Shown here in pieces: positions 4,401 through 25,452 of a stretch of DNA of 25,452 nucleotides (its first letter is position 1; every line of letters begins with the position of its first letter). Position numbers and translations under genes: made by a program. The stretch lies in IMG/VR virus record IMGVR_UViG_3300010271_000013; one strand, written 5' to 3'. Source of the stretch: a virus. The notes beneath the pieces were generated by a model, which saw only the letters and a program-made list of their open reading frames with translations, did not search any database and was not told the DNA's origin.

Positions 4401-4800
4401 GGTTTGTGATTGGTTCTGTAGCGTTATCATCAACATTCAATGTTATGTTAAATTCATCAGAGAGTCTCTCCTTCAAAGAATCAAGCACATCAGATGCATT
4501 ATCCTCCGCGGTGAGGGTTACATTCACTTCTGATGGTAAACCATCCACAAGGTCCTTAATATTTGTGATGGTCTCTGTGGCAAAGTCATCGAATGCAGAA
4601 ATTGTGATTTCAACATCTGAGGGTAAAGTTTCAAGAGAATCCTGGATTGTCTCAAGTATTGGGGTGACAGTATCCTCTGTGGTGATATCTACTTCGACTG
4701 ATCCTGGCAGGTTGGACAGTGCATTGTTTAAATCGTTTAAACCGTTCACCACTTCCTCGGCATCCATTCTGACTTGCACGGCAAGTTCATGATCAGTCAT
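1420..4800 (-). CDS. tail tape measure protein (1126 aa)
   Basis: Longest ORF in the window, in the tail module. Five C-terminal 35-aa repeats with W/F at fixed spacing ([87 protein letters not shown] and others) and N-terminal ~28-aa repeats, as is typical of tape measure proteins. GGAGG Shine-Dalgarno-like motif about 9 nt upstream of the ATG on the minus strand. Confidence 0.75.
1830..2370. repeat. In-frame ~105-bp tandem repeats (5 copies) inside the tape measure gene; coordinates approximate
   Basis: Near-identical DNA blocks around 2020..2090 and 2125..2195 (GGCCACCTGAA...CCCATGAC.TGAATTTGGCCCAAGCGGATTGGATAGC), matching the 35-aa protein repeats. Confidence 0.7.
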
Positions 4801-4843
4801 CCATCAACTCCTCCTGGAGAGAAAACATTTATTTTTATGTCAA

Positions 4844-5557
4844 GTGAAAAATAGTATTGGGGTGTTTGTGTTGAAGCTTCAATGTAAAGAATGCGGCAGG
4901 GAGTACACATTACAGGATGATGAAGACCCCATGGATTACACATGCGAATGCGGGGGGAACCTAGAGAAAGACGAAGATCTAAGTGTATTAAAAGGCAGCA
5001 TATACCTTGCATTTATGTGGTTAGCGGCAGCTACAAATGGGGGTATCCAGGGGTTAGGGCTTCTTCTAATAGAATTGATATTATTCATTTTGCCAGCTAT
5101 AATCATATCAGCCATAATTCTCCGCGAAAAAAACCCTAAAGAATTACTTGGCATTGAGGGCATCCTATTCATCATATTAGGCATAATCGTCATCCATGAC
5201 CCTAAAAGCCTGATCTATGGTGCCTTCGGTATATTAGGATTACTAGCAGGGGTGGTCCTAACCATTGAAGGAGTGCTTGGCACTATTAAAGGAGATTCTG
5301 ATAAAGAAGGGCCCAGGGAAGTAGAAGGAGGTTTCCATGTCCTCCACGCAACAGCTATCCTCCTAGGAAGTTACATTGCATTACTTCTGATCAACCCCAC
5401 TGCAAGTGAAAGTGAGGGTATCATGGCCCTCACTATCATGTTCCTAGTTCCAATCCTCACTGCACTAAGCATAATCTACAGGAAAGATAACCCTAAACCT
5501 CTTAGATCAGTCCAATTAATAACCGCTATGATCATCTTATTCGTCCTCATCATTTAA
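4844..5557 (+). CDS. multi-pass membrane protein with N-terminal CxxC...CxC zinc-ribbon-like motif (237 aa); true start may be an internal GTG or TTG
   Basis: Only long ORF in the 4801..5536 gap and on the opposite strand to its neighbours. N-terminus CKECGREYT...YTCECGG, followed by about six hydrophobic helix-length segments separated by charged loops. Overlapping minus-strand ORFs translate to low-complexity sequence. Confidence 0.5.
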
Positions 5558-6276
5558 AGAATAATTTATCCTTTTGAGGGCCTCTAGTTTTTTCTCAATC
5601 TCCTCCTTGGAGGGTTTCACCCTGGGGGGTTCCATATGAGCCAGGTGATATTCTATGAATACACTGTACTCAAGTTCAAGTATCTCCCTTAAGCTCCACC
5701 CTGTCTTCATGCTGAGCTGGTAGATCCCCCTTTTGAGGGAGATCCACTCCTCCTCCGGGTTCCACTCTTTTTTTCAGTATTTTCAGTACCCCTAGGGTCT
5801 AGTTCATCAGTGGATACCCCTATGATATCAGGGTTCCCAAGTTCTAACATGATATTCACGATCTCTGTGACCATGTATGGGGCTAATTCTACGTCGGGTA
5901 GACTGTCAATGTACTCTGTTAGGGTCCCCTGAGCTTCCGCTTCCTTGTATTCTTTAGTGTCCCTGTACAGGGCCCTCTTCAAGCCTCTCTGCGCTAAGGG
6001 GTAACTTATCCTGCTGACCTCCACTGTGAGTTTATCTATCCTATCCTTTAGTTCTTTAATTTTCTTCGCATCATCCTCTGAGACGCCCTCCCCACTCTCT
6101 AGCCTCCCGATGAATTCCTGGTAGGCTGTTGCTATCTCCAATGCCTCATTCCTTTTTTCGATGAGGGGGATCACATATTCACTGTCAACAACCCTGTACC
6201 CTTCGAGTTCTACTTCGGTACCGTCCAGTTTAACCTTTTTCCTCCTCAGAAAAGAGAAACGTTTGGGGGTGGTCAA
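5537..6276 (-). CDS. predicted G-T chaperone fusion made by programmed -1 ribosomal frameshift (about 247 aa)
   Basis: After the heptamer at 5767..5775 the -1 frame stays open for 76 codons ([76 protein letters not shown]) to TAA at 5537..5539. Frameshifting itself is an inference. Confidence 0.35.
5707..6276 (-). CDS. putative tail assembly chaperone, G-like (189 aa)
   Basis: Sits between the putative major tail protein gene and the tape measure gene; acidic product; carries a canonical -1 slippery heptamer 18 codons before its stop. Confidence 0.45.
   Translation of the reverse strand: MTTPKRFSFLRRKKVKLDGTEVELEGYRVVDSEYVIPLIEKRNEALEIATAYQEFIGRLESGEGVSEDDAKKIKELKDRIDKLTVEVSRISYPLAQRGLKRALYRDTKEYKEAEAQGTLTEYIDSLPDVELAPYMVTEIVNIMLELGNPDIIGVSTDELDPRGTENTEKKSGTRRRSGSPSKGGSTSSA
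5767..5775 (-). other. canonical -1 frameshift slippery heptamer A_AAA_AAG in the zero frame of the chaperone gene
   Basis: Minus strand reads GAA AAA AAG in the zero frame of the 5707..6276 ORF (plus strand CTTTTTTTC). Frame verified by counting codons back from the stop at 5707..5709. Confidence 0.45.
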
Positions 6277-6287
6277 AGCGGGTCACC

Positions 6288-7022
6288 TTAAACTTTTGGT
6301 ATTACTAGTGTTGGTGTGTCTGAAACGGTCATCTCAAGGGTGAATGACAGGTTATCCCCGGCTTTCCCTCCGGGTATGTCAGGTTTCAGTTTCACATTTT
6401 CAAAGTAGAACCGTCCCAGTGTCTCCCCATCCACGTGGTATACGGTGTACCCGTATAGGTTGAGGGGTTTGTCACGGAGTTTATACTGCTCGGCCCCTGT
6501 GGTCTCACCCACCTTGTAGTACATTAGTTTTCTGAACTGCTCCAAACCATTCTTGGAGAGTATCTGCTCAGATTTTAGGGTGATTGTGGTGCCAGCGTAG
6601 CTTGTTATCTTCGCCGACTCATTTAATACGCTGACCTCCTTCGTGTCCTGCTTCACATCAGGGGTCACATCCTGGGCAAGGAATGGTTCCATCTCCTCCA
6701 CATATGATACTTTCACACTATCCCCTGTGTCTGGTGCTGATGCGAGACTGAAACCCTCAGCATAGCCTTCAGATTCATTGAATAGGATTGTTGAGACTGT
6801 TGCTGCTTCCCCATCAACTGTTACTGTGACATCTTCTGGTTTCACTGTCAGGTCATTACAGCTCCTGGGGAATATCGGCGGATTATTCACATAAAAATCC
6901 TTATTCGTCCCGTCTATATCCCCTATTGGGGTTTCCTCCTGCACAGGTATCCCAAGGAAGAACCCAACATTCTCCCCTGTCAGTATAGTTTCTGCTAGTT
7001 TATCCACAATCATATCCATCAC
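6288..7022 (-). CDS. putative major tail protein (244 aa)
   Basis: Position immediately upstream of the chaperone gene in the conserved siphovirus order; size appropriate. No motif recognised. Confidence 0.35.
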   Translation of the reverse strand: MMDMIVDKLAETILTGENVGFFLGIPVQEETPIGDIDGTNKDFYVNNPPIFPRSCNDLTVKPEDVTVTVDGEAATVSTILFNESEGYAEGFSLASAPDTGDSVKVSYVEEMEPFLAQDVTPDVKQDTKEVSVLNESAKITSYAGTTITLKSEQILSKNGLEQFRKLMYYKVGETTGAEQYKLRDKPLNLYGYTVYHVDGETLGRFYFENVKLKPDIPGGKAGDNLSFTLEMTVSDTPTLVIPKV

Positions 7023-15778: not shown

Positions 15779-15991
15779 TTAAAGTAGTAGACCCCAGGGT
15801 AAGTCCAATTTCACTCCACCAACATAACAATAAACACTTGACAGGACCAAACCACATGACCTGCAGCAAATATTATACTCAGAATCCAGCTCAAAATGGA
15901 TACCTTCACATTCAGGGCATTTCTCCTCCTCACTCAAAAACAAATTATAATTATCATATACTTTGACCTGGAATATCCTGTAATCCTGCAA
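15779..15991 (-). CDS. zinc-ribbon protein (70 aa)
   Basis: CPECEGIHF...CCRSCG, two Cys pairs about 17 residues apart. Confidence 0.45.
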   Translation of the reverse strand: MQDYRIFQVKVYDNYNLFLSEEEKCPECEGIHFELDSEYNICCRSCGLVLSSVYCYVGGVKLDLPWGLLL

Positions 15992-15994
15992 TAT

Positions 15995-16372
15995 TCATCC
16001 CCTCACAACAGGGGATCTGCTACGATAATATCTGAGGAGATTCCTGAGGACAGTAGTGTACAATTTATAGTTAACATTGTATTCTTTGAGGATAGTGTAC
16101 CTGTCTATCCTTAGGGGATGGCCTGTTGATTCCTCCTTGATGAATACTGCAAGGGCCAATAAGACCTGTTCCATTGATGCGCGCTTATGTAATTGTTTGA
16201 TCCCCACCCTCCGTGTTATGTAGAGTATTCTTTGTATATCAGTCCTGTTGAGGTTGAGGTCTGCAGATATTGTCTCCAGGAAAAAGTAGTGTTGAGTATG
16301 TCTCCATTCACCATTAGAAGAATTATGCATATCATATCTTCGGTTTAAGGATTCACTTACTACCATATACAA
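15995..16372 (-). CDS. hypothetical protein, possible DNA-binding (125 aa)
   Basis: First ORF downstream of the palindrome-rich control region; basic helical segments. TATA-like TTTTATAG on the minus strand at about 16391..16398, roughly 20-25 nt upstream of the ATG. Confidence 0.45.
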   Translation of the reverse strand: MYMVVSESLNRRYDMHNSSNGEWRHTQHYFFLETISADLNLNRTDIQRILYITRRVGIKQLHKRASMEQVLLALAVFIKEESTGHPLRIDRYTILKEYNVNYKLYTTVLRNLLRYYRSRSPVVRG

Positions 16373-16699
16373 AAATAAAAAAAGCAGAGACTATAAAACT
16401 TTTCACAGCGAAATCAACATGGTGAATAAAGGTATCCGCATCATATTTTAAAGTACTCTTTTGCTTACCATATCTCTTTTCTACAAAATATAATTTGCTG
16501 TTTTATATTATTACGAAGCCCTCTATTTTAATGTATGTACAAAGAAAAAAAGATGTATGTACATCCGCGAATGTATCCCCAGGGAGTCTTGTACAGTCGA
16601 CTGTACATGCCCTGTACAGCTGTATGTACATGATGTGCTGGGGGTACTCTCGTCAATGTATGTACAAAGAGAAAAAGATGTATGTACAAATAGATAAAT
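16373..16699. promoter_or_regulatory. AT-rich intergenic control region with clustered TGTACA palindromes (candidate operator and promoter, or origin)
   Basis: About 330 bp without a credible ORF, lying between the regulatory gene block and the structural genes. Eight TGTACA hexamers and an 18-bp perfect palindrome. Confidence 0.55.
16530..16688. repeat. 34-bp direct repeat pair bracketing a palindrome cluster
   Basis: AATGTATGTACAAAGAAAAAAAGATGTATGTACA at 16530..16563 and AATGTATGTACAAAGAGAAAAAGATGTATGTACA at 16655..16688 (one mismatch). Between them the perfect palindrome TGTACAGTCGACTGTACA (16590..16607) and further TGTACA sites at 16613..16618 and 16625..16630. Confidence 0.9.
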
Positions 16700-17164
16700 T
16701 TATAAGGAGACTCCCATATCTAAAAGTAACCTTAAAATCTCCTCTTCAGGAGCCCCATAGATCCTACTAGCAATCTCTATCAGATCCTCACCACGATCAT
16801 TAACAACCTCACTGGGGGAAACCATACCCTCTCTCTCCTCAAGTCTCTCCATAACAAACCTTGCAGCTTCCCTCACCTCCCTCATGGGTTCATCAACAGG
16901 CTCAGAAAACCTCTCTAACTCTCTTTTCAATCGATCCTCTTCCATATTCAATCTTTCCAATTCTTTCTCTAATTCAATCTTCCTCTCAGATATCTCATCT
17001 AACTCTTCCCTGAGTGCTTTCAGATATAACTCTGGGATTATACCCTTATTCTTCCTGAGTAACCTTGCAAAATATTCGATGGCATCAGCATAGGTGTACC
17101 TGCTTTTCTTAATAGTCTCCTTATCAACCCTTGAAACCCTGACATTTATTCGCGCGGTTTTCAT
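16700..17164 (-). CDS. ribbon-helix-helix-like DNA-binding protein with coiled-coil C-terminal region (154 aa)
   Basis: N-terminus ARINVRVSRVDKETIKK...YADAIEYFARLL fits a strand-helix-helix pattern; charged coiled-coil-like middle. Gene ends at the edge of the palindrome cluster. Confidence 0.45.
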   Translation of the reverse strand: MKTARINVRVSRVDKETIKKSRYTYADAIEYFARLLRKNKGIIPELYLKALREELDEISERKIELEKELERLNMEEDRLKRELERFSEPVDEPMREVREAARFVMERLEEREGMVSPSEVVNDRGEDLIEIASRIYGAPEEEILRLLLDMGVSL

Positions 17165-17445
17165 GGTGCTTCACTGTTTAAGACCCCTTTTAGCCTATTT
17201 TTCTCATGATATTCCCTTAATTTCTCCTTACTCTTCCTTTCATCCTCATCGTACTCTGACGCCATCCTTCTGAGGACTTCTCCCACAGGAATCTGTCGCA
17301 TCAGTGAATAGATGCTCATTGTCTCCCTGAAGTAGTAGTTCATCTGGTTCATGAATAACTGCATGACCCTATCCAAGTCAACATCATTCTCCATGAAGAA
17401 CTTGTATAGTTCATCGTCTACTCTTAAAGTCACTTTAACCTCCAA
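17161..17445 (-). CDS. small possible ribbon-helix-helix protein (94 aa)
   Basis: N-terminus KVTLRVDDELYKFF; 4-nt overlap with the downstream gene. Confidence 0.35.
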   Translation of the reverse strand: MEVKVTLRVDDELYKFFMENDVDLDRVMQLFMNQMNYYFRETMSIYSLMRQIPVGEVLRRMASEYDEDERKSKEKLREYHEKNRLKGVLNSEAP

Positions 17446-17447
17446 GA

Positions 17448-17681
17448 CTATTGGCCCCCCTCGTCATCTAATAATTTCTTTAGTGACATTATTGTAACAG
17501 CCACCAATGTCTCTGACTCCCTTATACTTGTACCTTTAATTGTGGCCTCTAAGGCGATTAGAAGCGCTTCCAACCCAATTAATGGATGCGCCCCCTCATC
17601 ACGGAATAACCTCACAGTCTTAAGAGCTAATTCTTTACTTTCCTCAAAGGCTTCCTCGGTCAATATAAACTTGTCATCCAT
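17448..17681 (-). CDS. hypothetical protein (77 aa)
   Basis: ORF in the tightly packed operon. Confidence 0.4.
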   Translation of the reverse strand: MDDKFILTEEAFEESKELALKTVRLFRDEGAHPLIGLEALLIALEATIKGTSIRESETLVAVTIMSLKKLLDDEGGQ

Positions 17682-17683
17682 TA

Positions 17684-17953
17684 CTACGCCTCCAATGTGT
17701 ACACCCTGACTGGTTTCCCATACTTATTCATCGTTATCCCCGTGGTCACCGCCACCCTACGCGTGTAGATTGTGACAGCCTGCCGGGTTACATCATAATT
17801 CCTTCCGAATTCATAGTTGTGAAGGAGTAGCCTGTGCAACTCCTCCACACTCAACTCCCCATATTCCATGAGCAATTCCTTTATGGCCTTCTGGAGGTCT
17901 CGCCTTCCGCAGATCCTCCTCTGCATCCTTCTTCCCCCCATCTGTGGGCCCAT
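17684..17953 (-). CDS. putative winged-helix DNA-binding protein (89 aa)
   Basis: Basic N-terminus followed by helix-turn-helix-like ELSVEELHRLL. Confidence 0.4.
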   Translation of the reverse strand: MGPQMGGRRMQRRICGRRDLQKAIKELLMEYGELSVEELHRLLLHNYEFGRNYDVTRQAVTIYTRRVAVTTGITMNKYGKPVRVYTLEA

Positions 17954-18014
17954 CTGATGAGTTTACTCCATGCTTCCATTGCACTCTGGAGTTCTTCCTC
18001 ATCAACGTTTCCTC

Positions 18015-18482
18015 TCATCCTTTCACCCCCAGGGTGGTTTGATCAGCGGGGATCTTTTCTTCACGGATCTGGCTTTTGGGGAGCCAGTAAGACTCCCCTT
18101 TAGGTGTTCTCAGCAGTATGGCCTTGGGTGTTTCATGTTCTATTGTCCCTGTCACTCTTTCCCTGGTGAGTCCTTTTTCCTCAGCAAGCCAAGCAGGCAC
18201 TTTGAATGTGCGCATGCATTCATGGTCACCGTATTCTTCATATGATTCGTTGAGTATGTGCTGCAGGACTGCCCAGCAATGTTTGCAGATGTATGAACCC
18301 TCATCGCCATGACGGTACTGGTAATCAGGGCATTCGCATCGTATCATGTTATCCAGTACTGTGACAAGGTATTCCCCATTCTCTGACCGGGTGATGAATG
18401 GTAGTAATGCATCATCCCCAGGTAGAGGTTCGACTTGAATGTTCTGCGCCTTCCGCAGCCTCCGTAGGTGTTCCCCCACCAT
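18015..18482 (-). CDS. SWIM-type zinc-finger protein (155 aa)
   Basis: CECPDYQYRHGDEGSYICKHC matches the SWIM pattern CxC-x(n)-CxH. Confidence 0.5.
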   Translation of the reverse strand: MVGEHLRRLRKAQNIQVEPLPGDDALLPFITRSENGEYLVTVLDNMIRCECPDYQYRHGDEGSYICKHCWAVLQHILNESYEEYGDHECMRTFKVPAWLAEEKGLTRERVTGTIEHETPKAILLRTPKGESYWLPKSQIREEKIPADQTTLGVKG

Positions 18483-18667
18483 CAGCGCATCCTCCTCTCA
18501 AGGTATTCTCTCTCAATGTTCACATAGTCCAGGTAATAGAGGATGGCGTCATTGATGATCTCATTCAGGGATAGTTTCACTCCTTCGTCCTGCGCTGTTA
18601 TCACAATATCTTTCAGGTAACTGTACACACCTTCAGGGAGCATTATGCTGGTCCTGACTCTATCCAT
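18482..18667 (-). CDS. ribbon-helix-helix (CopG/Arc-like) protein (61 aa)
   Basis: RTSIMLPEGVYSYLKDI...LSLNEIINDAILYYL is a typical strand-helix-helix layout. Overlaps the SWIM gene by 1 nt. Confidence 0.5.
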   Translation of the reverse strand: MDRVRTSIMLPEGVYSYLKDIVITAQDEGVKLSLNEIINDAILYYLDYVNIEREYLERRMR

Positions 18668-18668
18668 G

Positions 18669-19193
18669 TTAGTTCACCCCCAGTTCCTCCTTGATTTTGA
18701 GGTACTCTGATTCTGTGACACCACCCTCACCATAGACTTCATCAAGCTTTTCCAGTACATTCTTTAATGTTGTCGTCCCTTTGTCGGCGCGGGTTAACAT
18801 GATAAGTGCCTGGATGCTTTTGTCCTGGAAGTCATTCTCATGGAGAACTCCTAACTGTGTGGGTTGATTGAGTCTTTTCACCTTCACTGTGTAACTGTGG
18901 TATTCCGTACCATTCTGTGACTTTGCCTTTCCATTGTATGTGATCCAGACACCCCATCCTTCCTGTATCCTGTCAAAGTATTTCTCCAGGGCCTTGTGGC
19001 CTTTCACGTAGTATTCCCCGTCTGCTGTTTGGAGTGTCATGACTTTTAGGCTGCCGAGTTTTGTGTCTATCTCCTTGATGCCTTTGCAGATGCCACGTAT
19101 ACTTTCTCCCTCCATGGGGTTCCAGAACATTGCTGATTCGTTCAGGTCTTCCCATCCTTTATCATTCTCTAATTCCAGTAGCAGGTCATTCAA
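18669..19193 (-). CDS. hypothetical protein (174 aa)
   Basis: ORF in the operon; no motif recognised. Confidence 0.45.
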   Translation of the reverse strand: MNDLLLELENDKGWEDLNESAMFWNPMEGESIRGICKGIKEIDTKLGSLKVMTLQTADGEYYVKGHKALEKYFDRIQEGWGVWITYNGKAKSQNGTEYHSYTVKVKRLNQPTQLGVLHENDFQDKSIQALIMLTRADKGTTTLKNVLEKLDEVYGEGGVTESEYLKIKEELGVN

Positions 19194-19196
19194 TAT

Positions 19197-19454
19197 TCAC
19201 ACCCCCTTTAAGAGTTTTTTAAGCATTTCCAGCTTCCCATAAGGACTGAGTCTGAAGTATTCAGTGGGGACATTCACACCCGCCTCTCTTAGATGCTCCA
19301 GGCCCGCTTCTGCCCATGCATCCATCCTTATACGTGAAGTTTTCCTCTCAGCTATCCTCGCAGCTAACCTGGCGAGTGATAGATGGTCTCGGGGTGTCCT
19401 GGAGAACATCTCAAGGTCATGGTATTCATCCACTAATCCCATAACATCAACCAC
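19197..19454 (-). CDS. hypothetical protein (85 aa)
   Basis: ORF in the operon; no motif recognised. Confidence 0.4.
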   Translation of the reverse strand: MVDVMGLVDEYHDLEMFSRTPRDHLSLARLAARIAERKTSRIRMDAWAEAGLEHLREAGVNVPTEYFRLSPYGKLEMLKKLLKGV

Positions 19455-19571
19455 CTACAATCCAAATGTGTGGTATGGTGCAACTTCGAGTGTCTTCATA
19501 AATCCCATGAAAATAAAAAAGAGGAGGATTAGGAGGATGAGGATCACAGCCCTCATGTTCAGATCGGACAT
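19455..19571 (-). CDS. small hydrophobic protein (38 aa), below the ORF-track size cut-off
   Basis: Read by hand: MSDLNMRAVILILLILLFFIFMGFMKTLEVAPYHTFGL. Its ATG overlaps the upstream stop (TGATG) and its stop abuts the next gene. Confidence 0.3.
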   Translation of the reverse strand: MSDLNMRAVILILLILLFFIFMGFMKTLEVAPYHTFGL

Positions 19572-19705
19572 CACTCATCCCCCTCCTGCAGGTCAATCTG
19601 AAGCCATCTGATTAAATCTTCGACGGTTTTCCTGTAGCGGTTAATGTCGTCGATGTCCCTTGTTATTAGGAGGCGGTTGTAAAGTTCCTTTTTGGTTAAT
19701 GGCAT
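19571..19705 (-). CDS. small protein (44 aa), below the ORF-track size cut-off
   Basis: Read by hand: MPLTKKELYNRLLITRDIDDINRYRKTVEDLIRWLQIDLQEGDE. Fills the gap between 19709..20191 and the downstream genes. Confidence 0.3.
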   Translation of the reverse strand: MPLTKKELYNRLLITRDIDDINRYRKTVEDLIRWLQIDLQEGDE

Positions 19706-19708
19706 CAT

Positions 19709-20191
19709 TTATTCCACCTCCATTTCTCCGTAAATTATTGACCTGTAGAGTGCATTGTAGTCCTTGATTGTCTCATCATCCTCTGAGGTGATTATGTCAA
19801 GGTAGGCGAGGTAAACAATGTCTTCATCGATGATTACGTCCCCCTCTCCCTGGTGTTCCCTGAGTGCTCTGATCCATGCGAGGCTGCCTGCTGAGTGTAG
19901 AAGATCAGCTGCGAGATGTTCAAGTATTTTTCTGAATTCACGGATTGCTTCGCTGGTTAAATGGGCCTTGTTAGGGTTTCTGATACCCATGAAGTTGTCA
20001 TGTACTTGGTCTTCAAGGGCTTCTACGGGTGTTAGTATTTTCACCCGGATGCCGTCATGGTCCAGGTAGTCCTGGTATGTTTCTTCTATCTCTTCGGGGT
20101 AGCCCTTTTCAAGGGCTTCCTTGTACTTTCTCCAGGCTTCAAGCCTACTACCAAGAACAATATCTCGTGTTTTCATCTTACCACCACACAT
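19709..20191 (-). CDS. hypothetical protein (160 aa); start may be the internal ATG at 20174..20176
   Basis: First gene of the long minus-strand regulatory operon. Its start region lies inside one copy of the 24-bp direct repeat. Confidence 0.45.
   Translation of the reverse strand: MCGGKMKTRDIVLGSRLEAWRKYKEALEKGYPEEIEETYQDYLDHDGIRVKILTPVEALEDQVHDNFMGIRNPNKAHLTSEAIREFRKILEHLAADLLHSAGSLAWIRALREHQGEGDVIIDEDIVYLAYLDIITSEDDETIKDYNALYRSIIYGEMEVE
20167..20190. repeat. 24-bp direct repeat, copy 1 (GTGTTTTCATCTTACCACCACACA)
   Basis: Exact match to 20496..20519. Confidence 0.9.
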
Positions 20192-20290
20192 AATTTTATA
20201 GATAATATAGTATATATATTTTTTGGTATATTGGTGTAGTGGTTAAATATTATAAATATTTTTAAGCTATGCTCCGAAAAAATAGAAACC

Positions 20291-20464
20291 ATGAAAAGTG
20301 AAAAGGTCAACACAAGTGTCAATATCGATGCAAAAAAGTTCAAACTCTTCAAAGTCATCGCAATGCTAAAATTCGAGAAAACGCCAATTACCTCCGCATG
20401 GGAAGAAGCTATTGATTTGTTTATCGAAAAAAATAAAGAATATCTTGACGAAATTAAAGAATAG
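20291..20464 (+). CDS. small ribbon-helix-helix-like protein (57 aa), below the ORF-track size cut-off
   Basis: Read by hand: MKSEKVNTSVNIDAKKFKLFKVIAMLKFEKTPITSAWEEAIDLFIEKNKEYLDEIKE. Lies in a markedly AT-rich segment flanked by the 24-bp repeats, on the opposite strand to its neighbours. Confidence 0.4.
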   Translation: MKSEKVNTSVNIDAKKFKLFKVIAMLKFEKTPITSAWEEAIDLFIEKNKEYLDEIKE

Positions 20465-20495
20465 AGCAGTGAAACTCTTTCTTCTGCCCCCCTCG

Positions 20496-20519
20496 GTGTT
20501 TTCATCTTACCACCACACA
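20496..20519. repeat. 24-bp direct repeat, copy 2 (GTGTTTTCATCTTACCACCACACA)
   Basis: Exact match to 20167..20190. Confidence 0.9.
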
Positions 20520-20570
20520 CTAAAGGGGGGCACCTATATATAACACTACCATTAATACCTATCACATAGC

Positions 20571-20670
20571 ATCCCCCTAAGGGATGCGCATCCCCAGGGG
20601 GCCATTAGGGGATGTCACTTGGTGGGCGCCAAAAGAACTTCCTTCTAAAACCCCCTGGGGACCCCACCCT
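20571..20670. other. GC-rich palindromic non-coding segment downstream of the integrase gene; candidate attachment site
   Basis: Perfect 14-bp palindrome GGGATGCGCATCCC (20581..20594); inverted pair CCCCAGGGG (20592..20600) and CCCCTGGGG (20652..20660). Functional assignment is inference. Confidence 0.25.
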
Positions 20671-20742
20671 ATGAAAGGTTAATAAGAAAAGAATAAATAA
20701 TACCTTTAACCTTAGAGAGCCCCTGAAAACTAATCACAATCA

Positions 20743-21936
20743 TTATCTCATTCTCTTCAAAAACTCAGGATCTGAAACAATAATATTATAGATTTTCTCC
20801 GTTTTCTTCACCCACTCCCTCAACTTCTCCTGAGACTCACGCAACTCCTTAATCTCCCTCTCCTTAGCCTCCAACTCCCGCACAATCTCCCGCACCTCAT
20901 CAGACATAACACGACGCACACGTGACCTCTCCAACGTAAGAGCATGCATCCTCTTCCTATACTCCCTCTCCATGTGCCCAATATTCGCCTTGAAGTAAGC
21001 CTCAGTAACAGGATGAACCTTATGGCCAAGGCACCAATCAATCATGAGTTTATCCATCCCCTCCCTGTAGAGGATGCTCGTGAAAAGCTTCCTTAACTTA
21101 TGAGATGTGAAGCGTCGTGATCCATCATCACAGACGCCTAAACCTAGAGTGTCATTGATCCTTATGAATATCTTAACATAATAGTTCTGTGATAATCGTT
21201 TACCCTGCCAGGTTGCGAATAAGGGATCCTCTGGGCCTCCAAGGAAACCTTTCATTCGCCGATGTTTCAGGTACTCAAGGATCTTCAGGTTGGCCTCGGG
21301 GGTGGTGAAGGTCACATAGGGCATCCCCGTCTTCACGCGTCTAATCCTCCAGACACCCACAATCTCCTCATCCTGGATCTTCCTCCGCACTTCATCATAT
21401 TCAGCTCCCAGGACGCGGACTCCGAGGGCCTCCTCGTAGTCATTTATTGTGAGGCTTCTTACCTCAGCGCCTCCCATTCCACTGCTAACCTGTAGGAGGA
21501 TTATTGCCTTTTCGCGTGAGGGGACGTTGTCCACGACGTATTTTACTTCATCGAGTGATATAATGTCCTCCATTGACCCATTCATCGCCCTACTCTTGTA
21601 GGTGATCCGTGGCGGGTCTATCTCGTATTCATTGTACAGGGATTTTATCCTGGCGAGGTATATGTTGATTGTTGATGGTTTAACTCCTTTTTCTTCAAGG
21701 TATTGGATGTACTGGAGGAAGTATGTCCTGATGCTACGTTTTCTTCTCCGAACGCCACGGTCCTGTTCTTCTTCGGCTTCTTCTATGAGTTCTGTGAGCG
21801 TATTTTTACCCGTGGCTTTGAGGTAGTGTTTCAATGCTCCTTTGTATGTTTCTATCGTTCTTTTTTTTATGTTATGTGACAGGATAAAGTCCTGGAATAG
21901 TGGGTCTGTCTCGGGGAGTGGTTTTTTGGTGGGCAT
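20743..21936 (-). CDS. int: tyrosine recombinase / integrase (397 aa)
   Basis: N-terminal core-binding-like region, and a C-terminal catalytic region with HKLRKLF (H-x-x-R) and LGHKVHPVTEAYF (His and nucleophile Tyr). T-rich run after the stop on the transcribed strand. Confidence 0.8.
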   Translation of the reverse strand: MPTKKPLPETDPLFQDFILSHNIKKRTIETYKGALKHYLKATGKNTLTELIEEAEEEQDRGVRRRKRSIRTYFLQYIQYLEEKGVKPSTINIYLARIKSLYNEYEIDPPRITYKSRAMNGSMEDIISLDEVKYVVDNVPSREKAIILLQVSSGMGGAEVRSLTINDYEEALGVRVLGAEYDEVRRKIQDEEIVGVWRIRRVKTGMPYVTFTTPEANLKILEYLKHRRMKGFLGGPEDPLFATWQGKRLSQNYYVKIFIRINDTLGLGVCDDGSRRFTSHKLRKLFTSILYREGMDKLMIDWCLGHKVHPVTEAYFKANIGHMEREYRKRMHALTLERSRVRRVMSDEVREIVRELEAKEREIKELRESQEKLREWVKKTEKIYNIIVSDPEFLKRMR

Positions 21937-22161: not shown

Positions 22162-23043
22162 TTAATCTGATGTGATCACACCCCAACCAATGTGCTGGAA
22201 CCCTGCTGTGCAACATGGCACCCCCAGGGGCCTCCCCGTCTTCGTAGCGGAGACATAATCCCATATCGTCCCATCCTTGAGCTCAAACCCGCCAACTCTC
22301 AGGAGGTAGTGGCCGTACCATTTCCCGTCGTTACACTTCACCCGAACATGTTCGATTTTCACCTCGTAGCCCATCTCTTCGAGGACCTTGCTGAAGAGTT
22401 GGCAGGCGTCGGTGCAATTGATCCCCTCATCAGTCATCCTCCTCACCGCATCGTCATCACTATATTTGTCATTATAGTAGTATTTGTAGTTGCATTTTCT
22501 TGCGACCGCACCATACAGTGTCGTTGCATCCACGAAGTCCCCTATCTTCTTCAGGACTCTCTTTGTCCACTCACCCTCCAGTCGCGGTCTCTCTATGTAT
22601 ACCACCTGGGGTTCCCTTCCATACCTGTCCTTGAAATTGTTGTATCGTCTCACCATGTCCCTGAATGTTTCGAGTGGGATGGATTCCCCTCCCCCTGAGC
22701 GGATGAATATGACGCGGGGTTCCCTCTTGTTCTTCATTTTGAAGTCCTCATACCTCTTCAACATGTCCTTGAACGTTTCGAGGGGTACTGATTCCCCTCC
22801 CCCTGAGCGGATGAATATGACGCGGGGTTCCCTCTTGTTCTTCATTTTGAAGTCCTCATATCTCTTGCACATGTCTTTGAAGGTTTCTAACGATACGCTT
22901 GGGCCCCCACCTGAGTAGATGAACACTACCCTGGGTTCTCTCCCATTAACCTCCTTGAAGCGGTTGTACCTGCTTAACATGTCTTTAAATTGGGTTATGG
23001 ATACATACTCTGGAGTGTTCTTATTAATCATGTCCACCTCCAA
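22162..23043 (-). CDS. pei: pseudomurein endoisopeptidase-like lysin (293 aa): tandem wall-binding repeats plus Cys/His/Asp peptidase domain
   Basis: Three near-identical ~36-aa repeats (EPRVVFIYSGGGPSVSLETFKDMCKRYEDFKMKNKR, EPRVIFIRSGGGESVPLETFKDMLKRYEDFKMKNKR, EPRVIFIRSGGGESIPLETFRDMVRRYNNFKDRYGR). C-terminal domain has candidate triad Cys in INCTDACQLF, His in GHYLLRV, Asp in DGTIWD, the order used by transglutaminase-like Pei enzymes. Confidence 0.6.
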   Translation of the reverse strand: MEVDMINKNTPEYVSITQFKDMLSRYNRFKEVNGREPRVVFIYSGGGPSVSLETFKDMCKRYEDFKMKNKREPRVIFIRSGGGESVPLETFKDMLKRYEDFKMKNKREPRVIFIRSGGGESIPLETFRDMVRRYNNFKDRYGREPQVVYIERPRLEGEWTKRVLKKIGDFVDATTLYGAVARKCNYKYYYNDKYSDDDAVRRMTDEGINCTDACQLFSKVLEEMGYEVKIEHVRVKCNDGKWYGHYLLRVGGFELKDGTIWDYVSATKTGRPLGVPCCTAGFQHIGWGVITSD

Positions 23044-23691: not shown

Positions 23692-25035
23692 TCACACCCC
23701 CTTCACAGGTTTCCCATAATTACCATAGAGTTGGCTGTAGACTGAGACAAGGACTGTACTGGTCCTTTCATTCACATCTGAGACTGTATGGATACTGCTC
23801 AGTTTCTGTTGTGACTCTATCATGTTCAGGACCGTCTCGGCGAGGTTCTTGTTCGATTCAACATCAGGGTTGTCACTAAAATCAACCCTAGTCCTGCGGC
23901 CGCCATTATCCCCCTCCCATGACACGTTCGTCACAGTGAACACCTTATCTCCTGTCTCATAGGGGAACCTTATGGATTCCCCTGGATGGAATGTTTGCAA
24001 GCCTGGCACCTCAAAACTCCCGGTTGTAATGGGGTCCTTGGTCTTCCTCAGGGCTTCCTCCAGTTTCCTCATGAGCTCATTTATACATTCCTTCATCCAT
24101 TCTTCTTCTCTTGGCTGATCTGAATACAGTCCTCCGCGGGGGCCGCCCCAACGGTACAGCCATGCCATGAAGTCCTCAGGACTCCCTTTATGTCCATGAT
24201 TCAACCAGTCCAAGTAGACCATGTACCCATGCATGTAATTCATCATATCCGCGTATCTTTTCACTTCACTAGGGGAGGGTGGTGTCTCCTCTTTATCATT
24301 TTCAGTGGGGGGTGGGTTGCAGGTGACGGTGATCCTCTCCCCAACCCTGAGACCATACTTTTCTATGCTTGCAGCATCACTCACCGAACGTGTGACTTCA
24401 CCATTGGGTCCTGTAGCACCCTCATAGTAGTTGTACACCCCTTCACTTGACTCCCTGATCTCAATGTTAATCATGTTCTCCACGGGCAGGTCGGTCACAT
24501 CCCCCTTACTGAACACTCTGAAAGTACCATATGGGTCTATATACCACCCCACATTCGCATCCTGATCATTCGCAACAGTGAAGAGCGTGTTAAGTGCTTC
24601 TACCTTACTCCTGAATTCCCCTCCATAAAAATAAGGGTCAAGGGCATTATTAGAGAACTGCACCTGGGGTATGCTCTCTGATGCGCCTATAATTATCTTG
24701 GTGTCCCTCAGGATGTTCTCAATGATCTCCCTCATGGGGAACACTCTACCCCCGCGGAGAACAGCACCAAATGCAAAGGGTTGTCTGGATAGGAGGAATG
24801 CATCATTATATCCGCCAATTGTGTATTGAAGACCATTTGCTGAGCGTGTCATGGTCACCGTCTCAGCGCGGCCAGTGAACACTTCATTATCCCTAACGAG
24901 GAACTGGATCTTATCCCCTGTCTTAAATTCTTTTTTCTCTCGTGGCCTTATTGTGACAGTGAATGATGTAGCTGCATCGTTCAGTCTTTGCTGGATATTG
25001 AAACTCACAAGTCCCTTTTCAGGCATATTCCACAT
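23692..25035 (-). CDS. putative tail-associated / baseplate protein (447 aa)
   Basis: Large ORF continuing the tail module across the window junction; no motif recognised. Confidence 0.45.
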   Translation of the reverse strand: MWNMPEKGLVSFNIQQRLNDAATSFTVTIRPREKKEFKTGDKIQFLVRDNEVFTGRAETVTMTRSANGLQYTIGGYNDAFLLSRQPFAFGAVLRGGRVFPMREIIENILRDTKIIIGASESIPQVQFSNNALDPYFYGGEFRSKVEALNTLFTVANDQDANVGWYIDPYGTFRVFSKGDVTDLPVENMINIEIRESSEGVYNYYEGATGPNGEVTRSVSDAASIEKYGLRVGERITVTCNPPPTENDKEETPPSPSEVKRYADMMNYMHGYMVYLDWLNHGHKGSPEDFMAWLYRWGGPRGGLYSDQPREEEWMKECINELMRKLEEALRKTKDPITTGSFEVPGLQTFHPGESIRFPYETGDKVFTVTNVSWEGDNGGRRTRVDFSDNPDVESNKNLAETVLNMIESQQKLSSIHTVSDVNERTSTVLVSVYSQLYGNYGKPVKGV

Positions 25036-25452
25036 CCCTGATTTTTACCTTGAGTTCACCATCATCCCTAATATCTTGAATGATCTCGCCTTCAAGGGTG
25101 AGATCATATTCAACCATCTCCCCTGTGTCAACCCGCACGTAGCAGGGGATGTATCTCATGGATGTGCTCTCATCAACCATCACCCCTACCCTGATGGGGA
25201 GTGTTGTGTGTAGGGATTTCCGTTCAGGACGCCTAACTTTTAGCGTGCAGGGGAGGGTTGCTTCCCTAAATCCTGTTATACCTACTCTGCAGGGGAGGGT
25301 TGCTTCCCTAAATCCTGTTATACCTACTCTGCAGGGGAGGGTTGCATAACCAGTTTGCTCCTGAGACCCAAATACTTCCACCTTGCAGGGGAGGGTTGCA
25401 TAACCAGTTTGCTCCTGAGACCCAAATACTTCCACCTTGCAGGGGAGGGTTG
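25019..25452 (-). CDS. repeat-containing small protein whose 5' part is encoded by the tandem array; on a closed circle it would start at ATG 143..145 (about 152 aa); could instead be a short ORF starting at ATG 25178..25180
   Basis: Minus-strand frame is open through every repeat unit (54 bp = 18 codons, 42 bp = 14 codons), giving ATLPCKVEVFGSQEQTGY and ATLPCRVGITGFRE repeats. The same frame crosses the junction to MEDVKMAD starting at 143..145, with a stop just upstream at 146..148. Confidence 0.3.
   Translation of the reverse strand, partial: TLPCKVEVFGSQEQTGYATLPCKVEVFGSQEQTGYATLPCRVGITGFREATLPCRVGITGFREATLPCTLKVRRPERKSLHTTLPIRVGVMVDESTSMRYIPCYVRVDTGEMVEYDLTLEGEIIQDIRDDGELKVKIRDVEYA
25247..25452. 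repeat. Composite tandem array: 2 x 42-bp units, then 2 x 54-bp units, then partial core; continues at 1..120
   Basis: Units at 25247..25288 and 25289..25330 (42 bp), 25331..25384 and 25385..25438 (54 bp), each starting with the core GCAGGGGAGGGTTG. Copies of each unit type are nucleotide-identical. Confidence 0.9.

Follow-up and report, generated by a model that had tools for sequence, protein, structure and literature searches.

The closest described systems are those of psiM100 (AF301375), in which ORF31-ORF1-ORFA-ORF2-ORF3-ORF4 are followed by 125-bp repeats, and psiM2 (AF065411), which carries ORF31 and ORF1-ORF4, and in both of them a repeat unit of the array follows ORF4. A comparable layout is known from the switch regions of lambda (cI/cro-O-P) and P2/186, where an integrase is followed by a small opposite-strand DNA-binding gene, a polycistronic early operon and the late genes, and where the early operon combines regulators with accessory genes for replication and recombination. 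The locus studied here agrees with these types in both respects and differs from them in having no initiator or helicase-loader homologue, in its promoters, which appear to be of the archaeal TATA type, and in a candidate repressor that is ribbon-helix-helix (RHH)-like rather than HTH.

Judged from its sequence, the window (the whole stretch of 25,452 nucleotides analyzed here) carries the early-gene operon of a psiM2/psiM100-type temperate head-tail virus (Leisingerviridae) of the methane-producing archaeon Methanothermobacter. The gene order and orientation match those of psiM100 and psiM2, and the array again follows ORF4. The genome assembly was complete and circular at about 25.3 kb, with window ends identical over 120 nt, and megablast and blastn, in agreement with the annotated records, showed a mosaic relative of both viruses, with 98% DNA identity to psiM100 ORF1-ORFA-ORF2-ORF3-ORF4 at 16530-19220 and 98% to psiM2 at 16530-17973. 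Integrase, Pei lysin, terminase, portal and tail genes were found elsewhere in the genome. In comparison to psiM100 and psiM2, the first gene of the window is only 37% to 57% identical, the 85-aa gene g85 is extra, the integrase differs (64% to 73% identity), and the IFa insertion and the ASCH gene (psiM2 ORF5) are missing; in comparison to psiM100, there are 1.3 rather than 3 repeat units and the att core is missing. The virus is an ordinary further member of a known group, to which useful new annotation is added. Our explanation of the locus as a whole, which we regard as fairly probable, is an early operon with an SSB-like accessory protein, use of the host replisome, a switch involving p57, and an ORF4-bound array as the likely origin.

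Organization of the early gene block

Twelve minus-strand ORFs fill positions 16700-20191 without gaps (Table 1), in agreement with the original prediction of about twelve small genes. The junctions between them range from -46 to +3 nt, G-rich Shine-Dalgarno-like runs lie upstream of nearly all starts, and the twelve genes are translationally coupled on one strand. The integrase and the opposite-strand gene p57 flank the block past its 5' end, and the conserved repeat array flanks it past its 3' end; p57, the array and the SSB-like OB fold encoded by 18669-19193 within the block had all been overlooked originally. Six of the small genes (g45, g39, g61, g45b, g77 and p57) are unannotated in the psiM100 and psiM2 GenBank records.

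Table 1. Features of the early gene block and its surroundings (window coordinates)
Feature	Position	Strand	Remarks
TATA-like box GTTATATATAGGTGCCCC	20535..20544	-	TATA scan; conserved in four of four aligned lineages
Perfect 24-nt direct repeat, two copies	20167..20190 and 20496-20519		
p57, 57 aa	20291..20464	+	between integrase and block; RHH-like by pattern
Palindromic TATATATA	20211..20218	-	in 100-nt AT-rich gap between p57 and first block gene
g160	19709..20191	-	first operon gene; ORF31 homologue of psiM2/psiM100
g45, 45 aa	19571..19708	-	unannotated in psiM100; 71-73% identity in relatives; dN/dS 0.07-0.12
g39, 39 aa	19455..19574	-	hydrophobic putative ORF; 92-95% identity in relatives
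g85, 85 aa	19197..19454	-	in other relatives, not psiM2/psiM100
ORF1 homologue, 174 aa	18669..19193	-	N-terminal OB fold (SSB-like), C-terminal three-helix domain
g61, 61 aa	18482..18667	-	ribbon-helix-helix protein
ORFA homologue, 155 aa	18015..18482	-	SWIM zinc finger, lineage-specific C-terminal domain
g45b, 45 aa	17881..18018	-	overlaps ORFA stop (ATGA) and ORF2 start
ORF2 homologue, 80-89 aa	17684..17953	-	winged-helix-like by pattern only; phrog_33711 match
g77, 77 aa	17448..17681	-	99-100% identity in relatives
ORF3 homologue, 94 aa	17161..17445	-	RHH-like N-terminus by pattern; dN/dS 0.13
ORF4 homologue, 154 aa	16700..17164	-	RHH-like N-terminus by pattern, coiled coil, conserved C-terminal helical domain
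Iteron-like array	16524..16699		eight TGTACA palindromes, most within TGTACATACAT; T-rich spacers
TFIIB-like (TFB-like) genes	15995-16372 and 15779-15991		start of late operon

Judged from dN/dS values of 0.07 to 0.27 where divergence sufficed (g160, g45, ORF1, g61, ORF2, ORF3 and ORF4), the testable genes of the block are under purifying selection; dS was saturated for ORFA and for g85 in comparison to its one diverged relative, and there were too few differences for g39, g77, and g85 in comparison to close relatives. The first gene, g160 (dN/dS 0.15), probably starts at the ATG at 20176 (MKTRD..., 155 aa), which is the start chosen by other gene callers, and its product matched phrog_37053 (E 8e-52) and had no Pfam or PDB-profile match. 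The hydrophobic product of g39 may possibly be a membrane peptide, g85 always has the OB-fold gene downstream of it, g45b was picked up by other gene callers and has a weak homologue at the matching position in lineage L022, and the g77 product had no Pfam or phrog match.

The results gave mixed support to the DNA-binding functions proposed earlier. A winged-helix protein had been expected from ORF2, which occurs as a tandem duplicate inside a single protein of lineage L026; no significant HTH match was found for it, and the hints were both weak (Tfx at E 0.5, and PF0610-like_N at E 0.036 for the homologue of a sister lineage), so this assignment was not borne out. At least three RHH-like proteins had been proposed; the fold was verified for the g61 product, the only verified RHH in the block, the others being RHH-like by pattern, and SeqA_N matches of ORF3 were below threshold (E 0.12 in the window and 0.004 in L022). 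Beyond this RHH protein and the SWIM protein, DNA binding by the small RHH-like and HTH-like products is plausible by pattern, and these products would regulate viral transcription. Small DNA-binding proteins are indeed encoded in the block, but its description as regulatory is too narrow in view of the SSB-like OB-fold gene that it includes.

The OB-fold protein, its partners and replication functions

The product of the ORF1 homologue, the largest gene of the block, is a probable single-stranded-DNA-binding protein of the SSB-like OB-fold type. Similar to the OB domains of SSB, PRD1 P12 and archaeal RPA, it has five strands and a helix that separates b3 from b4, and DDIPF-type tails, the acidic tip of bacterial SSB, are present in some of its homologues. 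The family also shares the replication-gene neighbours of SSB-type proteins: homologues adjoin Prim-Pol/D5 helicase (D5_N) or DUF3854/DUF3631 genes, and one is fused to a DnaQ-type exonuclease (RNase_T). In contrast to SSB, the window protein has a three-helix domain where the acidic tail would be, and none of the Pfam SSB models matched its sequence. This C-terminal domain is common to the ERF recombinase of a sister lineage, and L026 carries an ERF recombinase and a PCNA homologue within the corresponding block. The OB, RHH and SWIM genes are syntenic in three lineages; in variant L012 the OB and SWIM genes are missing together, suggesting that these genes may be dispensable or that the L012 provirus is defective.

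In agreement with the original reading, no polymerase, primase or helicase domain, and also no Rep domain, was found by the Pfam scan of the about 40 ORFs of the genome, and since the window ends are identical, this absence applies to the whole circularly assembled genome. The HHpred annotation published for psiM2 (PMC8651126, S3 table) also contains no replication protein. A genome that encodes no recognisable replicative enzyme is most naturally read as depending on the replication enzymes of its host, and the viral DNA is most likely copied by host machinery. The earlier view of wholly host-reliant replication was overstated, however, since the SSB-like protein here and ERF and PCNA in sister lineages indicate that accessory factors for replication or recombination are supplied by the virus itself. 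The OB-fold protein would coat viral DNA that is single-stranded in the course of replication or recombination; the RHH and SWIM proteins, as its conserved partners, would act with it, and DNA synthesis would be carried out by the host replisome.

The SWIM zinc finger predicted in the ORFA homologue was recovered (PF04434, E 3.3e-8, 33.3 bits in comparison to a cut-off of 19.6, with the CxC...CxH motif visible), as was the 1-nt overlap with g61 at a TGATG junction; the C-terminus matched phrog_8389 (E 5.5e-9), and SWIM-only versions of 79 to 86 aa occur in psiM2, where the gene is unannotated in the GenBank record, and in sister lineages. This pair had been proposed as a toxin-antitoxin-like or regulator pair within a purely regulatory or anti-defence block. 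The closest structural matches of the 61-aa protein are indeed the DNA-binding domains of type II antitoxins (ParD, TacA, MazE7, RelB), the RHH gene of antitoxin-toxin operons usually lies upstream of its partner, and g61 resembles the CopG/Arc/MetJ antitoxins both in fold and in lying directly upstream of, and overlapping, its partner. These matches are attributed to fold rather than function, and we consider the toxin-antitoxin reading very unlikely, because SWIM (PF04434) is a zinc-chelating module that binds nucleic acid or protein and is not a known toxin, defence and toxin-antitoxin models had no match in the block (PADLOC gave only coiled-coil noise, and Pfam no toxin), the pair is accompanied in every case by a syntenic OB-fold or ERF gene, the psiM2 pair has no overlap, and the SWIM domain of the THM-1 provirus forms one protein with Myb/HTH DNA-binding repeats.

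p57 and the candidate switch region

In psiM100, psiM2, L007, L022 and L026, p57 has a counterpart of 57-63 aa that is a complete ORF, with a start and a stop codon of its own. Amino-acid identity is 67% to 75% at a DNA identity of about 70%, with substitutions mostly at third positions, and independent gene callers place p57 on the plus strand; the GenBank records annotate instead 'ORF30' on the other strand, the ends of which are not conserved. Its RHH match was not significant, and we regard p57 as a candidate lysogeny repressor. The GTTATATATAGGTGCCCC box would drive transcription antisense to p57 and into the block, and TATATATA is a candidate divergent promoter pair; the strict archaeal consensus TTTAWATA did not occur, and the promoters were assigned from TATA-like words alone. 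Facing and divergent TATA-box promoters would in this way transcribe p57 and the block as a lysis-lysogeny switch. The p57 cassette is bracketed by the two copies of the 24-nt repeat, the copy nearer the block holding the SD, ATG and first codons of the first block gene.

ORF4 and the TGTACA array

The array lies directly after ORF4 with conserved architecture in five lineages and is conserved in register across lineages, and ORF4 homologues were likewise found in five lineages. Its TGTACA(TACAT) sites, at spacings of 11-12, 22 and 32-36 nt, correspond to 1.3 units of the 125-bp repeat that the psiM100 record annotates, and motif position 5 (C, T or G) changes in every copy in step with residues of the ORF4 N-terminal strand. 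ORF4, whose profile matches were to coiled coil only, is thus a candidate binder of the array, a link that is based on adjacency and co-variation across 4 to 5 lineages. Two sister lineages have host-type mini-ORB elements within 200 nt of the ORF4 stop, and these elements were verified as Orc1/Cdc6-adjacent oriC repeats in Methanobacterium; no ORB-like element was found near the array of the window, and the GC skew of the window had no inflection. We propose that the N-terminal ribbon of ORF4 would bind the TGTACATACAT array directly downstream of its gene, marking a cis-acting site that would most likely be the viral replication origin. Similar to plasmid and lambda iterons and to omega and ParG operators, the array consists of short sites repeated at the spacing of helical turns, adjoins a gene whose product is a putative RHH protein, and has copies that evolve in concert with one another and in step with that protein. 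In comparison to iteron origins, the sites are palindromic hexamers inside direct 11-mers, their binding is putative, and no initiator enzymatic domain was found in the window.

Two other functions of the array were weighed against that of an origin. Hexamer repeats occur in clusters in pac sites, e.g. that of phage P1, and the array, which opens the late region and precedes terS by 1.4 kb, could be the pac site of a headful-packaging virus with ORF4 as a packaging accessory. The circular permutation of psiM2 DNA (PMC8651126 S1 table) would fit this as well. A site recognized by TerS should nevertheless co-vary with TerS, and TerS is 99% to 100% identical across lineages whose array motifs differ or that have no TGTACA, which argues against TerS as the array reader; with co-variation seen for ORF4 instead, and a copy number ranging from 1.3 to 3 units, packaging appears quite improbable. 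Less so, but still rather unlikely, is a role as operator or terminator where the early and late regions meet, through which ORF4 would control read-through or a late promoter and have no replication role: paired sites are separated by the T-rich runs CTTTTTCTCTTT and CTTTTTTTCTTT, oligo-T signals termination in archaea, the array precisely separates the last early gene from the TFIIB-like genes, and RHH proteins are typically repressors on tandem sites, e.g. omega. This would leave unaccounted for the ORB elements that flank the array in sister lineages, and the fact that the region is a hot spot for foreign DNA insertion and copy-number change. The operator/terminator and origin roles can also coexist, and an ORF4-bound origin could serve at the same time as the boundary of the early and late operons. 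The TGTACA sites numbered 19 in the window in comparison to 5.5 expected, 8 of them within 153 nt, and 19 and 9 in psiM100 and psiM2, respectively.

Genome identity and layout of the early block

In a megablast search against phage records, the window matched only Methanothermobacter phage psiM100 and Methanobacterium phage psiM2, which are among the earliest methanogen viruses characterised. The blastn maps showed that most of the window shares 91-98% DNA identity with psiM2/psiM100 in the same gene order: identity to psiM2 is 91-92% in the structural module and 98% at positions 16530-17973, identity to psiM100 (4064-6752) is 98% at positions 16530-19220, the integrase region reaches just 67-71% or so, and positions 19220-19439 had no counterpart in either genome. 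The Pfam search recovered the hallmark genes listed in the table, as well as a tape-measure protein and TerS, so that similarity to psiM2/psiM100 across the genome and the hallmark genes are both present, as in Leisingerviridae/Psimunavirus. Because of this psiM2/psiM100 mosaic and the Pfam hallmark genes, the window is a new member of the Leisingerviridae. The long ORFs are all on the minus strand, and the window has the same 120 nt at its two ends, from which it follows that it is a circular assembly of about 25.3 kb. It lacks the att core of psiM100, and neither tRNAs nor Rfam families were found in it. At positions 1-123 and 25246-25452, units of 54 and 42 nt are perfectly repeated in tandem and encode the N-terminal peptide repeats EVFGSQEQTGYATLPC and RVGITGFREATLPC of a 138-aa protein; their true copy number is uncertain because the assembly was cut within the repeat.

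Features of the early block and of the rest of the window (domain matches are from Pfam)
Feature	Position (strand)	Assignment or content
Early block	16700-20191 (-)	early operon
First gene, g160	19709-20191 (-)	ORF31 homologue
g45	19571-19708 (-)	
39-aa ORF	19455-19574 (-)	
g85	19197-19454 (-)	
ORF1	18669-19193 (-)	OB fold (model); probable SSB-like protein
g61	18482-18667 (-)	ribbon-helix-helix (RHH) protein
ORFA	18015-18482 (-)	SWIM zinc finger, PF04434, E 3.3e-8, 33.3 bits (gathering score 19.6); CxCxnCxH signature as C-E-C...C-K-H, residues 38-76
ORF2	17684-17953 (-)	
77-aa ORF	17448-17681 (-)	
ORF3	17161-17445 (-)	strand-helix-helix pattern
ORF4	16700-17164 (-)	strand-helix-helix pattern
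TGTACA array	16524-16699	
Cargo site	16373-16523	minimal, empty version
TFB-like gene, first part	15995-16372 (-)	125 aa, psiM2 ORF6 homologue
TFB-like gene, second part	15779-15991 (-)	TFIIB zinc ribbon PF08271, E 5e-4, below cut-off
24-nt direct repeat TGTGTGGTGGTAAGATGAAAACAC	20167-20190 and 20496-20519 (-)	perfect
p57	20291-20464 (+)	57 aa; candidate repressor
ORF30 equivalent	20173-20565 (-)	probable mis-annotation
TATA-like box	20535-20544	
GC-rich inverted repeat	20566-20742	
Tyrosine integrase	20743-21936	PF00589
Pseudomurein endoisopeptidase	22162-23043	PF12386, PF09373; four PMBR repeats
Repeat-containing gene	25019-25435 (-)	138-aa protein
TerL		PF03237/PF17289
Portal		PF04860
XkdF-type protease		PF14550
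Mini-ORB match TTACACTTGAAA	7836-7847 (-)	probably coincidental

In this new psiM2/psiM100-like virus the early block makes up the early operon, a known kind of element and not a new kind of system, and what the original prediction describes is ordinary for the early region of a known virus family. The count of about twelve small genes in the original prediction was borne out, as 12 minus-strand ORFs fill the block with no non-coding space, neighbouring ORFs overlapping by up to 46 nt or standing at most 3 nt apart, and a G-rich Shine-Dalgarno-like run precedes nearly every start. Their psiM100 counterparts (ORF31, ORF1, ORFA, ORF2, ORF3 and ORF4) are all annotated 'unknown'; to our knowledge, the early genes of psiM2/psiM100 have kept this label since 1998-2001 and nobody has explained how these viruses replicate. 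The prediction was largely right in observation and half right in interpretation: it described a regulatory block, but the block as a whole reads as a regulation plus replication/recombination module. The new annotations, offered as hypotheses, comprise an OB-fold protein of SSB-like type, an RHH protein that was verified, a number of small genes that lacked annotation, an ORF30 probably placed on the wrong strand and a co-evolving ORF4/array pair. The probable SSB, the verified RHH protein, the opposite-strand repressor-like gene that was probably mis-annotated and the co-evolving protein/array pair, which could be the origin, give testable handles in Methanothermobacter, which is used industrially for biomethanation and for which few genetic tools exist, and the origin and switch, if confirmed, could serve virus-based vectors.

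Values of dN/dS, given only for genes with enough differences and unsaturated synonymous sites, were 0.07-0.27 against diverged relatives for g160, g45, ORF1, g61, ORF2, ORF3 and ORF4; dS was saturated for ORFA and for g85 against its single diverged relative, and the 39-aa ORF, the 77-aa ORF and g85 against close relatives were too conserved for a ratio. In the HHpred annotation published for psiM2 (PMC8651126, S3 table), ORF1 appears as an uncharacterised arCOG14016 protein, ORF2-4 have no assignment, ORF5 is given as ASCH and ORF6 as a TFIIB cyclin-like domain. Residues about 78-135 of the g160 product follow a pattern, TPEAIxxLE...A...A...I..E.I.LgYL, that by eye resembles the a2-L2-a3 segment of a histone fold and recurs in a 103-aa paralogue-like protein of the related lineage L022; the idea of a C-terminal histone fold was dropped, as no histone match came from Pfam run on seven homologues or from a PDB-profile search.

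Predicted DNA-binding proteins and a probable SSB-like protein

Of the RHH-like proteins, at least three of which had been proposed, g61 was verified: an N-terminal strand followed by two helices is superimposable on solved RHH domains, as in CopG/Arc/MetJ proteins, and dimerisation through the strand and sequence-specific DNA binding would be expected of such a protein. ORF3 and ORF4 have the strand-helix-helix sequence pattern only, in common with p57; none of the three matched RHH families in Pfam or PDB-profile searches, their hhalign comparisons with the verified RHH protein were not significant (probability <4%), and the sole statistical hint of RHH was a SeqA_N match that stayed below threshold (E 0.004), obtained with the ORF3 homologue of a sister lineage. 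Searches of Pfam, PHROGs and PDB profiles returned no RHH or winged-helix match for any block gene, and PDB sequence-profile searches with the RHH and wHTH candidates returned noise only. The proposed winged helix of ORF2 found no support, since no Pfam HTH/wHTH match was obtained at E<=1 and its PDB-profile searches likewise gave noise, the best hints being PF0610-like_N (E 0.036, in a homologue) and Tfx (E 0.5). The SWIM zinc finger of ORFA, and the 1-nt overlap of its gene with the upstream RHH gene (a TGATG junction), were both confirmed. Homologues found with ORFA and the RHH protein were family-restricted only. The suggestion that these two genes form a toxin-antitoxin or anti-defence pair found no support, with no PADLOC match to the pair and no toxin domain: ORFA matched SWIM and no toxin family, PADLOC models gave nothing on the block except coiled-coil noise in ORF4, and the antitoxin resemblance of the RHH protein is one of fold alone. 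In the THM-1 provirus, a related lineage, the SWIM partner forms a single protein with Myb/HTH DNA-binding repeats.

No polymerase, primase or helicase had been recognised in the window, and the Pfam search of about 40 ORFs over the whole genome agrees and extends this to the Rep domain, with no match to PolB, PrimPol, MCM, D5, Rep or Orc1/Cdc6 in any ORF. Because some 15 ORFs have no match at all, a very divergent replication enzyme is still conceivable. The HHpred results published for psiM2 (PMC8651126, S3 table) are in line with this absence. The proposal that replication depends wholly on the host stands in that the virus brings no enzyme, but not entirely, as an SSB-like accessory protein is probably encoded in the block.

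This protein is ORF1, for which an initial search of genome contigs gave no match and an exhaustive HMMER search found 62 clusters sharing the N-terminal 100 residues (one apparent match, the SpaA-repeat protein P0013, was judged spurious and set aside). The AlphaFold2 model built from the 62-cluster alignment is confident (pLDDT 91.6) and has a canonical OB fold (b1-b2-b3, helix, b4-b5), closest to nucleic-acid-binding OB domains as expected of an SSB-type fold, followed by a three-helix domain. ORF1 itself has no Pfam match, including to the SSB family PF00436, and no acidic C-terminal tip. An acidic DDDIPF-type tip is typical of bacterial SSBs; seven homologues end in (I/L/V/M)PF and four of these seven carry such an acidic tip, so that an SSB-type tip is found in 4-7 of the 62. 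Prim-Pol and D5_N helicase genes lie immediately downstream of one homologue, a DUF3854/DUF3631 protein is encoded downstream of another, and one homologue is joined to an RNase_T (DnaQ-like) exonuclease in a single protein. The C-terminal helical domain is common to an ERF-family recombinase in the same position in a third virus lineage, L026 (Logan SRR33282617_439660), whose equivalent early block holds, at 1539-3254, the ERF recombinase and a PCNA homologue (about 20 sliding-clamp matches in PDB phmmer, best E 1.4e-5) that Pfam missed. The tips, neighbours, exonuclease fusion and shared ERF domain point to a family tied to DNA replication or recombination, and because these four lines join the OB fold, ORF1 is probably an SSB-like accessory protein with putative ssDNA binding. 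The gene order OB-fold (or ERF), RHH, SWIM recurs in three lineages, and the OB fold and SWIM gene are lost together in the deletion variant L012 (GCA_029972165.1 JARKUL010001518.1). In the L012 region 2721-3625, a deletion leaves the 85-aa gene fused to just the final 30 residues of ORF1, and half of the 77-aa gene is missing too; either L012 is a defective provirus or the OB-fold/SWIM-region genes are dispensable.

ORF4, the TGTACA array and a possible origin

The hexamer TGTACA occurs 19 times in the window against 5.5 expected, and 8 of the 19 fall within 153 nt directly after the ORF4 stop, spaced 11-12, 22 or 32-36 nt apart and mostly embedded in TGTACATACAT. The psiM100 record annotates this array as a 125-bp 'repeat_region', with 1.3 units in the window and psiM2 and 3 in psiM100. 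Among ORF4 relatives from metagenomes, the architecture recurs directly after ORF4, in register, in four lineages, with one base altered in every array copy between lineages: the motif is TGTACATACAT in the window, psiM2 and psiM100, TGTATATACAT in L089 and unit 1 of L088, and TGTGCATACAT in L026 and L091, while the THM-1 lineage has TGTATATGTATC and TGTA(TA)5TACA instead. The predicted N-terminal strand of ORF4 varies in parallel with the array (RINVRVS; QISVRVS and MVSVRVS; RTTTTVS; LTTVRVD), suggesting that ORF4 and the array may be a co-evolving protein/repeat-array pair with putative binding, a hypothesis worth testing.

As to what the array does, the best-supported guess is a viral replication origin. 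The mini-ORB TTACASTTGAAA lies within 200 nt of the ORF4 stop in the L026/L091 and THM-1 lineages, with two copies in L026/L091 and one in L021-23. Its doublets occur almost exclusively in Methanobacteriales genomes, and in Methanobacterium it forms two inverted arrays of 3-5 copies adjoining an Orc1/Cdc6 gene, a distribution that identifies it as the Methanobacteriales origin-recognition box; 13-bp mini-ORBs are recorded in M. thermautotrophicus (PMC1904270). The origin is a guess and not a demonstration because no host-type mini-ORB TTACASTTGAAA of the kind expected at an archaeal oriC, where ORB repeats accompany an AT-rich unwinding element, lies within 1 kb of the window's array. The array could instead be an early-late operator or terminator, or else a pac site; packaging through TerS is argued against because TerS is 99-100% identical across lineages whose array motifs differ. 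Returning to the origin, it is a speculative and rather improbable combination that ORF4 (RHH-like ribbon, coiled coil and helical domain) and its co-evolving TGTNCATACAT iteron array form a virus-specific origin-recognition module recruiting the host Orc1/Cdc6-MCM replisome with no viral enzyme, and that the OB-fold/RHH/SWIM trio is also a previously undescribed archaeal-virus ssDNA-handling module interchangeable with ERF. A single exact mini-ORB, TTACACTTGAAA, for which about 0.006 matches are expected by chance in the window, was set aside: it is isolated, inside a structural gene and absent from psiM2, and its occurrence is probably coincidental.

The interval between the array and the TFB-like gene is a cargo hot spot in relatives (L001 6786-9578; L005, L006, L014): in psiM100 the 2.8-kb IFa insertion sits inside the repeats, psiM2 and L014 each have an ASCH gene, and inserts of 1-3 kb are present in L005 and L006. 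The neighbouring TFIIB/TFB-like factor is apparently split in two, in reversed order relative to cellular TFB; the second part is unannotated in psiM2/psiM100, and the pair is inverted relative to its neighbours in L007 and L022. For psiM2 ORF6, the homologue of the first part, a TFIIB cyclin-like domain was found by HHpred (Liu et al. 2021).

The p57 gene and a putative upstream switch

The p57 gene has its own start and stop, is found as an intact ORF in psiM100, in psiM2 and in three further lineages (38-75% identity) and is placed on the plus strand by other gene callers. The GenBank records of psiM2/psiM100 annotate 'ORF30' antisense to it. The two frames share third codon positions, yet amino-acid identity is 67-75% in the p57 frame versus 40-54% in the ORF30 frame, and the ends are conserved in the p57 frame only, those of ORF30 and its non-overlapping parts being not conserved; ORF30 is probably a mis-annotation on the wrong strand. 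As the sole gene in the opposite direction, p57 lies between the integrase and the early operon, the classical position of a lysogeny repressor, and we infer that it is a candidate, repressor-like gene. The 100-nt AT-rich gap separating p57 from the first block gene contains a palindromic TATATATA, and the TATA-like box is conserved in all lineages compared; the strict archaeal consensus TTTAWATA has no exact match. Transcripts from this box would run antisense through p57 and into the block, from which we infer a p57/TATA-box switch.

The two copies of TGTGTGGTGGTAAGATGAAAACAC, a repeat absent from psiM2 and psiM100, flank the p57 cassette; the sequence carries the Shine-Dalgarno, ATG and first three codons of the first early gene, and the upstream copy lies just downstream of the TATA box. 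Between the integrase stop and this box, a long inverted repeat, TCCCCAGGGGG ... CCCCCTGGGGA, surrounds a conserved GCCCACCAA; its arms differ in psiM100 and L007 yet still pair (CCTCAGGA/TCCTGAGG). Its RNA fold z-score is -2.0; an integrase terminator, a small RNA and a recombination site are all conceivable roles.
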